Below, in pieces: positions 3,552 through 24,757 of a stretch of DNA of 34,022 nucleotides; the stretch's first letter is position 1, and every line of letters begins with the position of its first letter. The stretch comes from an archaeon (GTDB lineage: Archaea > Nanobdellota > Nanobdellia > WJKC01). Under the pieces are notes generated by a model. That model was given only the letters and a program-made list of their open reading frames with translations. It was not told the DNA's origin and did not search any database. Made by a program: the position numbers and the translations under genes. The DNA is taken from positions 1 to 34,022 of the forward strand of contig WJKC01000057.1 of the NCBI GenBank assembly GCA_014729335.1, read 5' to 3'.

Positions 3552-4367
3552 TCATCCTCCTAGTGAAATAAATACCTCTATTAACCCGCTGATTATTAAG
3601 GTAACGCTAGCGAGTATAATCAGGTCTATTGAGTCAAGCAACACTTCTTTAAATTTCTTACTTCTAGGCTTATACCTGATTACTGCAGCGCTGATTATTC
3701 CCCCGGCAATGCCTGCCATGAAATAAGCAATAATCTCTGGCACGCCGTGAATCAAGTACTGGCCGAACCCTATCGGAATAGCGTGGAAGTACGAGAGAGC
3801 GTTCTGAATATTTGAGGTGATGACGTTGCCAATAGCTGTTCCAAGTACGCTGGCGTTCCAGGCAATGATGAATATTGCCCCAGCACCGTATAACAAGCTG
3901 AATAACAGGCAGAAGAATAATACTTTGAAGTTATTAGCTAGTATTATCTTCAAGTAAGTTGTTTGTATATAACCCCCTTGTATGCCCGAGTTGATATTGT
4001 TTATAGTGTTAATCTGGCTTGAGAACACCCTGGCTTTGATTTCAGGCGGCAGCACCAGGTACCAAGTGGTGAATGATAATAATAAGCCAAAGAACAAGAA
4101 GAAAACCACTCCAAGCACGTCCTTATGATTGCCGATTAATGGGAACTCTTTTTTTGAGAAGTCCTCGCCACCCTCCATTTTTAATACGTTAACCAGAATT
4201 GGGATGCAAGCCATGGTGGTTAAGAATACAACGCTTATTGAGGGGTTGTCAGGGAACACCCAGAGACTTAGTGCTATGCCGGCGCTTGATGACAACAAGC
4301 CCATTAGGAACATCTTCCAGCTTTTTTCACGGACCTCTGACGGGCTGAGTATTGATTCAAACACCAT
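3552..4367 (-). CDS. SpoIIM/DUF95-family integral membrane protein
   Basis: IxxNNxKV, WNASVLG and IHGVPEIIAYFMAGIAGG motifs, C-terminal SGLIEVFIS; ATG at 4367 preferred over the ORF-track start at 4379. Confidence 0.85.
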   Translation of the reverse strand: MVFESILSPSEVREKSWKMFLMGLLSSSAGIALSLWVFPDNPSISVVFLTTMACIPILVNVLKMEGGEDFSKKEFPLIGNHKDVLGVVFFLFFGLLLSFTTWYLVLPPEIKARVFSSQINTINNINSGIQGGYIQTTYLKIILANNFKVLFFCLLFSLLYGAGAIFIIAWNASVLGTAIGNVITSNIQNALSYFHAIPIGFGQYLIHGVPEIIAYFMAGIAGGIISAAVIRYKPRSKKFKEVLLDSIDLIILASVTLIISGLIEVFISLGG

Positions 4368-5406
4368 TGCCTGGTTCAAGCCTCCTGCTCCTGCCCTGGA
4401 ATCCCTCGCCTGTCTCCTTGGTCTTGATTAAACCCTGTTTTTCTAAACGGTTGATGTACCGCCTGAAACTCCTGATGCTTAGCTTGCCACCGTGCTTTTC
4501 CTTGTACTTCTTGTAAGCGTCGCCGCTGATTATTCCTTTATTATTCTTTATTATCTTAACTATCTTCTCCTCATGACTGTTTAGTTTCTTTGGCAGCGAG
4601 TCAGTCATCTTACCTAACACTTCATTAACATGTTTTAACAGTATCTTGCGGCTGGCGTCTTGTTCAGCCCGCCTGCCCGCTTCTAATAAGATGGTTATTG
4701 CCCGCCTGACATCAGTCTCTGAGTTAATGCTTACCTCGTGTATCACTTTATCACTGACCACTCCCTGCCTAAAGGCTTGTTCAGCCCGCCTCTTAATAAT
4801 GTTCTTCATCTCCCTGGTGGTGTAAGGCTTGAACTCTAAGTTGTTAAGGTTTAACCGCGAAATCAGCCTCGGCTCTAAGTAAGTCTTGTACTTAGGGTTG
4901 TTGGTTACTAGTAATACGCTGACGCTGTCTAGTTTTAATAATGAGTATATTATGTTAACGTCCTTGACTTTATCCACCTCATCAAGGCATATGACCACGC
5001 CCTTGTCTCTTAATTTTTTGAAAGCATTGCTTATTATCTCGTCAGTCGGCACGCCTTTAGGAGGGTATAGCATCCCTGTCTTGCGGGCTATTTCCAAAGC
5101 CATTGTATGGGTTGTCTGGTTCTCCCAGCAGTTAATATAGATTGGCACCACCTCGTTGCCGCTTGCCTCTTTCAGCTCCTGGAAAACGAACCGGGCGCTC
5201 GCTGTCTTACCTAACCCTGGCATGCCGTAGATGAACACGTTGCTGCCCCGACGTTTATGGAATAATGGTTTCAGGTAGTCAGCGATTATCTTAATCTCCT
5301 TATCTCTTTCAGGCATCTTGTAAGGGATGAATTTATAGTCAAGAATACTTTCATCCTTGAATATTGTCTCGTCATCCATTAGTATGTCCTTGAACAAGTC
5401 CCCCAT
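4357..5406 (-). CDS. cdc6: Orc1/Cdc6 replication initiator (AAA+ ATPase plus winged helix)
   Basis: LDYKFIP..MPERDKE, Walker A GMPGLGKT, YINC, Walker B LDEVD, SRL..F.PY, DVRRAI, C-terminal wHTH ending GFQGRSR. Confidence 0.92.
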   Translation of the reverse strand: MGDLFKDILMDDETIFKDESILDYKFIPYKMPERDKEIKIIADYLKPLFHKRRGSNVFIYGMPGLGKTASARFVFQELKEASGNEVVPIYINCWENQTTHTMALEIARKTGMLYPPKGVPTDEIISNAFKKLRDKGVVICLDEVDKVKDVNIIYSLLKLDSVSVLLVTNNPKYKTYLEPRLISRLNLNNLEFKPYTTREMKNIIKRRAEQAFRQGVVSDKVIHEVSINSETDVRRAITILLEAGRRAEQDASRKILLKHVNEVLGKMTDSLPKKLNSHEEKIVKIIKNNKGIISGDAYKKYKEKHGGKLSIRSFRRYINRLEKQGLIKTKETGEGFQGRSRRLEPGNGV

Positions 5407-16804: not shown

Positions 16805-17572
16805 TTAGGAGTTGCTCTTTAAGTACTTTTTTAGTTTTTGCTGCCGGCTCTTATCAACTATATTTCTGTTTGGCGGCTCCACACGAGCAAACTTGTAACC
16901 CCAGTCCTTTAGCATTCCCTCAGCGTTCTTGCTCATGCCAGGAGCCGCGATGTAGCCAACAACTTTTTTTACTCCTTTAACTTTTTTTATTTTCTCAACG
17001 TACCGCCTTAGCTGCTGCACTGCGTTCAACCCGGCGGTCACTCGCTTGCACTCAATTATTACCAGTGTTCCCTTGCCGTTATGACCCATCACGTCAATGA
17101 ACCCGTACTTTGTCTGCTCTTCAAGACTCACCGGCTTGAAGTCATCACTGATAAGGTACGGCTTCTCATAAATCATTCGAGCCATATCAGCCTCGCTCCC
17201 AACAATTGACACCTCCTCAGCATCGCTTAGCTCGGCTGAGACTAACAGGTTAACTTTTGAGATGTTAATCATCATGTGCTCGCGAGGGTTAATGGATTCA
17301 GCAGTGATTACTAACGCGTCACCAGTTTTGAATTTAATACTCGCCCCTTCCTTAATCCAGTTAATAGGGTTCCTGCCAGTGGGCTTATGAACCAGCAGGG
17401 TATTGTCCTGCTTGATTGTCACTACGCGCTCACCCCGCTCCAGTTTAGAGTAAGCCCTTCCCTCGTACTTGACCATGCACTCGCAGTACAAAGTGATTAA
17501 TTCCCGGCGCCTTAACGCGTGCTCTAACACGTTCTTGGCTGTTTCAAAATCAGGTTCAACATGACTTCTCAT
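16805..17572 (-). CDS. nucS: Endonuclease NucS/EndoMS
   Basis: C.V.YEGRA.S.L..GER..IKQD..LLVH...P.NW, GSEADM, GFID, IECKR, AVQQLRRYV, C-terminal PIP-like QQKLKKY. Confidence 0.95.
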   Translation of the reverse strand: MRSHVEPDFETAKNVLEHALRRRELITLYCECMVKYEGRAYSKLERGERVVTIKQDNTLLVHKPTGRNPINWIKEGASIKFKTGDALVITAESINPREHMMINISKVNLLVSAELSDAEEVSIVGSEADMARMIYEKPYLISDDFKPVSLEEQTKYGFIDVMGHNGKGTLVIIECKRVTAGLNAVQQLRRYVEKIKKVKGVKKVVGYIAAPGMSKNAEGMLKDWGYKFARVEPPNRNIVDKSRQQKLKKYLKSNS

Positions 17573-17767
17573 ATTAAGGTTAAATTATTATTAACTTGTT
17601 AATAATTCTTCTTCAAAACAGGAACCCTTTATTTCCTCTGGAGTTGTTCTGGAAGGCTTTTCTGAGCCTCCTAAAAAGGTTTAATTATTTTCAATATAGA
17701 AAAGAATTGAGTGTTTTTGTTTCCTTTAGAAACCTTTATTAACTCTTATTGGCAATTAATCTTTGAT
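17573..17767. promoter_or_regulatory. Candidate replication origin: ORB-like box with AT-rich flanks, between divergent promoters
   Basis: Minus strand 17643-17625 reads CTCCAGAGGAAATAAAGGG (ORB-like with G-string); weaker copy TTCTAAAGGAAACAAAA at about 17731-17715; AT-rich tracts at 17573-17610 and 17673-17710. Confidence 0.55.
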
Positions 17768-18154
17768 ATGAGTGAGTTTGGTATTGGTTTTCATCATGAG
17801 CTGCCTTTAACAGATAATGACCTTGTTTACTGGCTGGCTGAGGATGAGAAGTTATACTTTGCCCGTCGAAGTGATTATAATAGCACTGTTAAGGAGGTAT
17901 TAGTTAATGATTTGAGGGCTGATATGATTAACTTGTCACGCTTGCTTGTGAAGCCTGAGCTGGAGTTTAAGTTAAGAACAACAAATGAACTGGTTGGTTT
18001 TAGAAAGGCTAATAGCATTACTTACATGATTTTTGAAGGGGCGAGGGAGTTCTCTGCTGATAATATTCATTACTCTCTTGGCATCTTTAAGGGTTATTAT
18101 GAATTGTACTTTAAGGGTGATTATAAGAGTGATATATTGCCTCTTGTTAAGTGA
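17768..18154 (+). CDS. Hypothetical protein
   Basis: ATG at 17768 about 26 nt after TTTATTAA; the ORF-track start (17711) lies upstream of that TATA. Confidence 0.65.
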   Translation: MSEFGIGFHHELPLTDNDLVYWLAEDEKLYFARRSDYNSTVKEVLVNDLRADMINLSRLLVKPELEFKLRTTNELVGFRKANSITYMIFEGAREFSADNIHYSLGIFKGYYELYFKGDYKSDILPLVK

Positions 18155-24633: not shown

Positions 24634-24757
24634 GGGGTCATAGTCTAGTCTGGCAGGACAACCGGCTCCAGACGATTCTTCGTATTGGAGCGCTGATTCA
24701 ATAATTTGGAGATGACGAAGATACCGGTTAACCGGGGTTCGAATCCCTGTGACCCCA
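24634..24757 (+). tRNA. tRNA-Trp(CCA) with 51-nt intron at canonical 37/38 (24672-24722)
   Basis: Acceptor GGGGTCA/TGACCCC, anticodon stem ACCGG/CCGGT around CTCCAG^A, T arm CGGGG-TTCGAAT-CCCTG; TTTTATAAAA promoter upstream. Confidence 0.93.
24672..24722 (+). ncRNA. Intron-encoded box C/D guide RNA predicted to direct Cm34 of tRNA-Trp
   Basis: Guide TGGAGC complementary to GCTCCA, D-box CTGA (24693-24696), C-like ATGACGA (24712-24718); the D+5 rule lands on C34. Confidence 0.7.

Follow-up and report, generated by a model that had tools for sequence, protein, structure and literature searches.

Can a replication origin in a DPANN archaeon lie apart from the initiator gene? This question is raised by the gap at 17573-17767 of the window, i.e., the whole 34,022-nucleotide stretch analysed here, for which the initial annotation had proposed an origin detached from cdc6. 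The window is contig C54 of a genome (G000) of 847 kb in 65 contigs, 85% complete, which was compared with three relatives of the same family (G001-G003, giving four family genomes). The gap separates nucS from a divergent 128-aa orphan ORF, beyond which follows a convergent class I tRNA synthetase gene (Pfam), which we take to be leuS. NucS plays a role in mismatch repair, and the nearest relatives of the nucS gene of the window are 74-77% identical to it. The orphan ORF has zero Pfam or NCBIfam matches. Its slot between nucS and leuS varies in content, with different orphan ORFs in G000 and G001 and none in G002; a homologue that is 38% identical was found in L146, a close nucS locus from a metagenome search, where it comes after a phosphorylase-phosphoribosyltransferase fusion gene (L146:608-2392). 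TATA boxes were predicted for both genes that flank the gap from a genome-wide TTAWWA peak 29-33 bp before the ATG (n = 346 genes). Scans of the gap for tRNAs and Rfam families returned zero matches. Elsewhere in the window, 24634-24757 gives a 124-nt Rfam tRNA match with no ARAGORN call, probably an intron-containing tRNA. Features are collected in Table 1, and published sources are cited throughout for the portions of their text that were available.

Table 1. Features of the nucS gap and its surroundings, in window coordinates.
Feature	Position	Strand	Remarks
Short Cdc6/Orc1 paralogue, 349 aa	4357..5406	-	Likely not the binder of the nucS-gap box
nucS/endoMS endonuclease gene	16805..17572	-	Pfam NucS_N and NucS_C; NCBIfam NF003270 above cut-off
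Predicted nucS TATA box	17599..17605	-	ATG 33 bp downstream; ORB 5' end 39 bp upstream
ORB-plus-palindrome block	17610..17716		Missing as one unit in the ~90%-identical relative
Full ORB, dyad core and G-string	17623..17644	-	Predicted site of the Orc1-1-like Cdc6 (C31); 72 bp from its 5' end to the nucS ATG
26-bp AT-rich palindrome, Nanoarchaeia oriC inter-ORB type	17683..17708		2 mismatches to the genome's own oriC copy; 24.1 bits
Weaker box of the initial annotation	17711..17732	-	Degenerate dyad without G-string; 7.3 bits (family matrix); probably not an ORB
Predicted TATA box of the divergent orphan ORF	17735..17742	+	From sequence; spacing fits the genome-wide TTAWWA peak
Orphan ORF, 128 aa, in the variable nucS-leuS slot	17768..18154	+	Function not assigned by Pfam/NCBIfam

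The ORB-type sequence that had been reported on the minus strand, CTCCAGAGGAAATAAAGGG at 17625-17643, was borne out by motif scoring. Its dyad core reads TCCA-N3-GAA, the form of an Orc1-1-type box, and a one-sided G-rich tail lies at the fixed distance, with GG at matrix columns 18-19. The box scores 20.2 bits and ranks third genome-wide with a family matrix (17 oriC boxes, taken upstream of cdc6 in the three family relatives only, own genome excluded), and 22.6 bits, ranking fifth, with an outside-family matrix (92 boxes upstream of cdc6 in genomes beyond the family). The 19-mer occurs once in the genome, also when up to 2 mismatches are allowed. The genome-wide scan proposed as a check counted 12 intergenic sites of at least 15 bits against 0.35 expected under a third-order Markov model, an excess of about 30-fold and thus not at chance level, in contrast to 2 coding sites against 4.6 expected. 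The excess is visible only when intergenic position and the G-string are included; loose 12-mer counts are uninformative, with 14 genome matches against 22 for a reversed control.

The premise that the cdc6 of the window is an initiator lacking an origin did not hold, since a canonical oriC lies beside a second, Orc1-1-like cdc6 on contig C31. This gene is full-length (C31:984-2195), with the polD small subunit downstream of it, and its product, which we take to be of the Orc1-1 type, lies above the NCBIfam cut-off for the ORC1-type equivalog, whereas the Cdc6 of the window lies below it. The C31 oriC (C31:582-983; L016) is the 402-bp gap upstream of cdc6 and contains five boxes around an 86%-AT stretch: two ORB(-) come first, then the AT-rich stretch with a palindrome, then two ORB(+), and a last ORB(-) immediately precedes cdc6. 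Box clusters occur upstream of the orthologous cdc6 in 30 of the 30 class genomes fetched (out of 40 with a match), with both orientations within 700 bp in 28 of them. Many class genomes have a box within about 70 bp of where cdc6 starts, which suggests autoregulation. In G002, on a contig of 727 kb, the orthologous oriC site (boxes at 117.4-117.7 kb) coincides with both the minimum of the GC skew (115.3 kb) and the maximum of the AT skew (117.5 kb), and this contig has no skew switch at nucS or ftsZ. In the literature, a DPANN origin beside cdc6 has been located by skew (available text of PMC5905446), and the pipeline of bioRxiv 10.64898/2026.08.15.744077, as far as its available portion describes it, would call C31, which is initiator-adjacent, rather than the nucS gap. 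The main origin thus most likely lies at the C31 oriC, elsewhere than in the nucS gap.

The distance noted by the initial annotation between the box and the window's own cdc6 stands (12.2 kb), as does the lack of a box in the upstream gap of that gene, where the best match reaches 3.3 bits with the family matrix; ORBs are likewise absent upstream of this short paralogue in all four family genomes. Its product is about 30% identical to the C31 Cdc6 and differs in the winged-helix region; being a shorter paralogue with a different winged helix, it is likely the wrong protein for the box-binding test that had been proposed. Non-initiators are described as being without ORB-contacting arginines at winged-helix positions (available text of PMC9738581). 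The short paralogue was found in most class genomes searched, with a conserved winged-helix sequence of its own, and is possibly a non-initiator regulator. The notion that the nucS gap is the main chromosomal origin, served by the cdc6 at 4357-5406, can draw on a well-matching ORB and a skew step at the site; against it stand the five boxes, the AT-rich stretch and the adjacent cdc6 and polD subunit on C31, the position of the skew extremes in G002, and the box-free upstream regions of the short paralogue, so that it is very improbable and already largely refuted.

A second element, absent from the initial annotation, was found 39 bp from the ORB, namely a near-perfect palindrome, a perfect 26-bp copy of which lies inside the AT-rich stretch of the C31 oriC. 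Its score was obtained with a matrix trained without this genome, on 20 other origins. The palindrome is present in 21 of 30 oriC regions of Nanoarchaeia (20 of these trained the matrix and are not independent), compared with 1 of 30 regions upstream of ftsZ2, 0 of 30 upstream of mcm, and 1 of 18 upstream of nucS, the last being only this window. An inward-facing ORB lies within 60 bp of it in 18 of the 21 oriCs that have it. The exact palindrome pattern matched in 20 of 41 genomes, and the reversed control in none; copy numbers range from 1 to 18, with ten intergenic copies in G000, 1 in G002, and 16-18 in G038 and G032. In all four family genomes, oriC is preceded by a gene (C31:72-581; L016) that has zero Pfam matches; a protein atlas, however, puts its product among DPANN 'transcriptional regulator' clusters that are winged-helix-like (score 0.92), and this product is a candidate binder of the origin palindrome. 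Judged from motif content, the nucS gap very probably holds a genuine Orc1-1-type box together with an origin palindrome, and the box is predicted to be a binding site of the C31 Orc1-1-like Cdc6.

The remaining features on which the initial annotation had relied carry less weight. The weaker box about 90 bp away is present at a distance of 88 bp, but it is at chance level (12 matches with 2 mismatches seen against 16 expected) and overlaps the BRE/TATA of the orphan ORF. The inverted repeat AGGCT..AGCCT exists at 17654-17669, but with 50 copies in the genome it is likewise at chance level; one of its arms is altered in a close relative, and a stable hairpin was rejected, as the gap folds no better than shuffled sequences (z -0.64). 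The gap is among the longer ones in the window, although 85 of 160 gaps of at least 100 bp, delimited with a simple ORF caller, are equally long. At 72% AT it does contain AT-rich tracts, but its weakest 50-bp stacking window is ordinary, at -53.7 kcal/mol against -42.3 kcal/mol for oriC, with 42% of gaps as weak or weaker. The arrangement ORB(-)/DUE/ORB(+) is not found here: to the right of the palindrome, the best plus-strand partners reach only -3.5 and -10.6 bits, the latter being a degenerate candidate at 17743 that was dropped. The genes adjoining the gap are nucS and the orphan ORF, the Orc1-1-like initiator gene being on C31.

The gap could nevertheless contain a second origin, weak or young, that has no cdc6 of its own and whose ORB and palindrome would be served in trans by the C31 Orc1-1; MCM would then be loaded in part of the cell cycles, at a site that synteny places about 120 kb away from the main origin. 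The initial proposal of a cdc6-detached origin thus survives in part, the ORB being real and the palindrome and a skew change-point fitting it, against which stand the main origin at C31 and the missing inverted partner ORB. The skew itself, taken at four-fold sites and corrected for gene strand, gives a similarly divided answer, since a change-point maps onto the gap but the combined measure has no clear sign change. It rises from +0.02 over the 10 kb to the left to +0.30 over the 10 kb to the right, a step of +0.28 that ranks first among the 119 gene boundaries of G000; in G002, the corresponding point by synteny gives -0.11. The best change-point, 17746 (rough 95% interval 17396-18043), is the strongest among the 12 G000 contigs tested, and none of 5000 gene-order permutations reaches the step at the gap, although neighbouring genes are not independent and the p-values given here therefore overstate the evidence. 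The G/C and A/T components both shift, on both gene strands, and no inversion breakpoint explains the step, because the genes keep their order and orientation in G001-G003. Against the G001 orthologues, the loss of leading-strand signal is larger on the left (-0.29, 13 genes) than on the right (-0.11, 8 genes; p = 0.02). Projected onto G002 coordinates, with the orientation of the G000 contigs assumed from synteny, the G000 signal falls off away from oriC, reaching about -0.1 to 0, and climbs again at the nucS gap; the G001 signal in the same projection is mostly positive. In addition, the ORB faces inward within 60 bp of the palindrome, in the arrangement of the palindrome-bearing oriCs, and box, palindrome, and spacing are retained or lost jointly in relatives.

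Several observations weigh against such an origin. The gap lacks both an inverted partner ORB and a strongly unwindable stretch, the skew on the left is near zero rather than negative, and the step falls to rank 11 of 90 after the G001 orthologues are subtracted. Two equal or larger steps occur in G001 without ORB or palindrome (chi2 155 and 175), and smaller motif-free steps also occur in G002 and G000. A weaker ORB-palindrome pair in G000 (C32:6016) shows no step, and another (C26:1102), 1.1 kb from a contig end, has the opposite skew sign on its right; G003 is without a step even at its own oriC and is thus uninformative for skew. Furthermore, the available texts argue that archaeal skews are weakly mutational (PMC12999951), that those archaeal origins which have been tested need an initiator gene beside them (PMC4010727, PMC3607249, PMC4595724), and that both inverted ORBs are needed at Sulfolobus oriC1 (PMC12141716). 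In view of both sides, we consider only tentatively that the site is a single-ORB, palindrome-bearing second origin on a chromosome under 1 Mb, a module of about 100 bp gained and lost within the genus, fired in trans by Orc1-1 and doubling as a nucS control element.

Other loci were also considered in the same skew framework. The motif-free strong steps of G001 lie at C5:84.5 kb and C1:183 kb, each adjoining an ftsZ paralogue, and the former is the start of a ribosomal-protein operon. The ORB cluster upstream of ftsZ was provisionally rejected as a second origin, being stepless in G000 and G002 and lying outside the interval of the strong G001 step about 3 kb away. The palindrome alone was also dismissed as an origin mark: among the non-oriC copies of G000, only those on C54, C6, and C51 (the last with a wide interval) lie within a change-point interval, and an upward skew step was absent at the palindrome copies tested in G001 and G003. 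Apart from the copy in the nucS gap, the non-oriC copies of G000 are C6:27909, C32:6016, C26:1102, C21:2346, C62:11069, C51:17173, C49:31, and C55:21501; a weak ORB-like match that faces inward accompanies three of them, and the second strongest skew change-point contains C6:27909.

The history of the module was followed in two close relatives, represented by contigs from two runs of one study (one or two contigs each, depth 5-17). In the relative of about 84% identity, the box is kept, and none of its five changes falls in the TCCA, GAA, or GG columns in a comparison made by hand; the palindrome stays symmetric and its spacing to the ORB is kept, although the orphan ORF is missing (joint 17738->18147). 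In the relative of about 90% identity, the orphan ORF and the nucS TATA region are kept, but box and palindrome are both gone, a loss that spans 107 bp, with a joint 17609->17717 that holds 23 other letters. No box was found upstream of nucS in 17 family-level and more distant loci; L146 has no box. Since the box is absent at 17 of 17 nucS loci and lost in a close relative, any control of nucS must be lineage-specific and dispensable.

The same pattern could mean that the block is a non-functional relic or a passive titration site without effect on nucS or initiation, e.g., a copied origin arm, or a box that drifts next to a dispersed palindrome. Its absence from one close relative and all family-level relatives, together with the dispersal of the palindrome in some genomes (10 copies in G000), is consistent with this; with about 10 boxes and about 10 palindromes in about 160 gaps, some 0.6 chance co-occurrences are expected by our estimate. 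However, all invariant matrix columns survive the five changes in the box of the 84% relative, where the palindrome is still symmetric, and intergenic boxes are about 30-fold above expectation. Moreover, inward-facing ORB-like matches of at least 7 bits occur in 4 of 17 non-oriC palindrome arms against 0.6% of the background, a count for which the distance window and the threshold were picked after seeing the data. A relic is considered unlikely.

We propose instead, with a probability of about 0.5, that the main role of the ORB is that of an operator tying nucS transcription to the state of the initiator, a reading whose strong rival is a weak second origin, with which it can coexist. As the main origin most likely lies elsewhere, control of nucS by the initiator is the likely function of the nucS-gap site. 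The C31 Orc1-1-like Cdc6 would bind the nucS box in trans through its winged helix, contacting the G-string as at known origins, and once bound just upstream of the BRE/TATA it may help or hinder TBP/TFB; the position of the box upstream of these elements makes activation more likely. In this manner, nucS would join mcm, ftsZ, nrdD, and cdc6-polD in a DnaA-like initiator regulon. The palindrome would bind a second protein, which, in the style of Sulfolobus ucm/UBP, may also act at oriC as well as at some ten further intergenic sites, and occasional origin firing from the same module would be compatible with the operator.

The geometry of the promoter speaks for this proposal. The ORB is oriented as nucS is, and its 5' end lies 39 bp before the TTAWWA TATA element. 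All four family genomes, though none of 26 others, have an ORB in gene-matching orientation (12.7-19.2 bits) upstream of mcm, at a distance of 82-90 bp from the match start. In G001-G003, TTAWWA follows the 5' end of this ORB by 40-42 bp, the mcm of G000 being without an exact TTAWWA. A fixed orientation and TATA spacing, as expected of an operator, are thus common to the nucS and mcm promoters; the boxes of ftsZ and nrdD have other geometries. The mcm ORB of G000 is at C42:12437, between tbp and mcm (loci L214-L217). ORB clusters occur upstream of ftsZ2 in four of four family genomes and 2 of 26 others. Each comprises three or four ORBs that alternate in orientation at intervals of about 45 bp (G000 C32:18350-18453; L026, L027, L028), and in all four family genomes they are 120-290 bp upstream of ftsZ2, which is divergent from a MinD/ParA-type gene. 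In G007 and G026, two genomes of another family, a single 32-bit ORB precedes ftsZ1 by about 205 bp (L313, L314). Boxes precede nrdD in G000 and G003 but not in G001 and G002.

Lone ORBs are a general feature of the class, since a pattern search of 41 genomes, from which 34 further loci were fetched (3 oriC-type, 31 non-oriC), gave scores of at least 19 bits for 24 of the 31 non-oriC loci. Only 1 of 11 other lone-ORB sites in G000-G002 has a skew step above the 95th percentile, and the palindrome was found within about 1.5 kb of none of the 31 other non-oriC loci (several genomes lack it altogether), which makes the nucS-gap site more origin-like than a typical lone box; the operator also leaves unexplained why the strongest skew change-point tested in the genome falls on the nucS gap. 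According to the available text of PMC1904270, isolated mini-ORBs are unbound in vivo in Pyrococcus and single full ORBs are tightly bound in vitro, and that of PMC3607249 describes non-origin Orc1/Cdc6 binding in Sulfolobus with transcript changes, the transcript data being unpublished there, and suggests a transcriptional role.

Three further arrangements of ORBs were observed. A lone ORB of 27-29 bits follows pheT or pheT-hjc, whatever gene comes next (G001 C1:14179-14222; G002 C5:256611-256629; G003 C1:97483-97501, L106); it has no skew step, its orthologous stretch was not found in the G000 assembly, and it is possibly a titration site. ORB pairs with G-strings facing each other, the reverse of the origin layout, occur 60-130 bp apart and far from cdc6 (G000 C65:16450-16534; G031 C6:3587-3714; G016 C10:13983-14110; G009 C56, L309). 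Strong ORBs are also found in or beside coiled-coil-like ORFs 2-11 kb from oriC (L322, L323, L325, and L326 in G034, G019, G006, and G025, respectively).

Among known systems, bacterial DnaA offers a parallel to the operator, with initiator boxes in the promoters of replication, nucleotide-reduction, and division genes that form a regulon or titrate the protein. The protein family and the transcription machinery differ from those at the nucS, mcm, ftsZ, and nrdD ORBs, so that the likeness is one of analogy only. The box resembles the oriC1-type ORB of Sulfolobus oriC1 and Pyrococcus oriC, bound by Orc1-1/Cdc6, in its dyad core and one-sided G-rich tail; TTCC/GAA-type dyad motifs with such a tail are described for archaeal ORBs in the available portions of PMC1904270 and the Ori-Finder-Arch preprint. 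In contrast to oriC1-type origins, the nucS gap has a single strong box, is missing the inverted partner and the adjacent initiator gene, has ordinary helix stability, and places its box just upstream of the TATA of another gene. The DNA-damage regulon of Sulfolobus Orc1-2 (PMC9738581) and non-origin Orc1 binding (PMC3607249) likewise put an Orc1-family protein at DNA-maintenance promoters; however, Orc1-2 is, in the text available, a non-initiator that binds ANTTTC, whereas the nucS site is a full initiator-type ORB, so that the initiator itself would be the regulator.

The secondary and dormant origins of haloarchaea (PMC4595724, PMC4010727) are, like a possible origin at nucS, lineage-specific extras of low or conditional activity, but they are described there with inverted ORBs and their own adjacent cdc6, neither of which the nucS gap has. 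Hyperthermus butylicus has an origin without an adjacent initiator, yet with an inverted pattern, according to the available part of the Ori-Finder-Arch preprint. Reports on extra-origin ORBs or on the origin palindrome in Nanoarchaeia were not found in a search that left most subscription journals outside; the supplementary tables of bioRxiv 10.64898/2026.08.15.744077, as described in its available text, cover Nanobdellota origins and may list the class ORB. As far as the literature searched shows, both the operator and the second origin would be new for DPANN archaea. An operator would add to the evidence for a DnaA-like archaeal initiator regulon (mcm, ftsZ, nrdD, nucS), one acting through full ORBs at defined promoter positions, and an origin would be a minimal, initiator-detached, single-ORB one that appears and vanishes among close relatives.

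In its placement the palindrome resembles the ucm motif of Sulfolobus, a second motif between the inverted origin ORBs with many non-origin copies. In the available text of PMC12141716, ucm is an 11-bp motif whose binding protein, UBP, is reported for Sulfolobales and Desulfurococcales, a DPANN counterpart being left as an open question; the Nanoarchaeia palindrome, in contrast, has 26 bp and a different sequence (by-eye comparison with PMC12141716 and the Ori-Finder-Arch preprint). Under either reading of the nucS gap, this palindrome, shared by 21 of 30 Nanoarchaeia origins, could serve as bait for the DPANN counterpart of Sulfolobus UBP.
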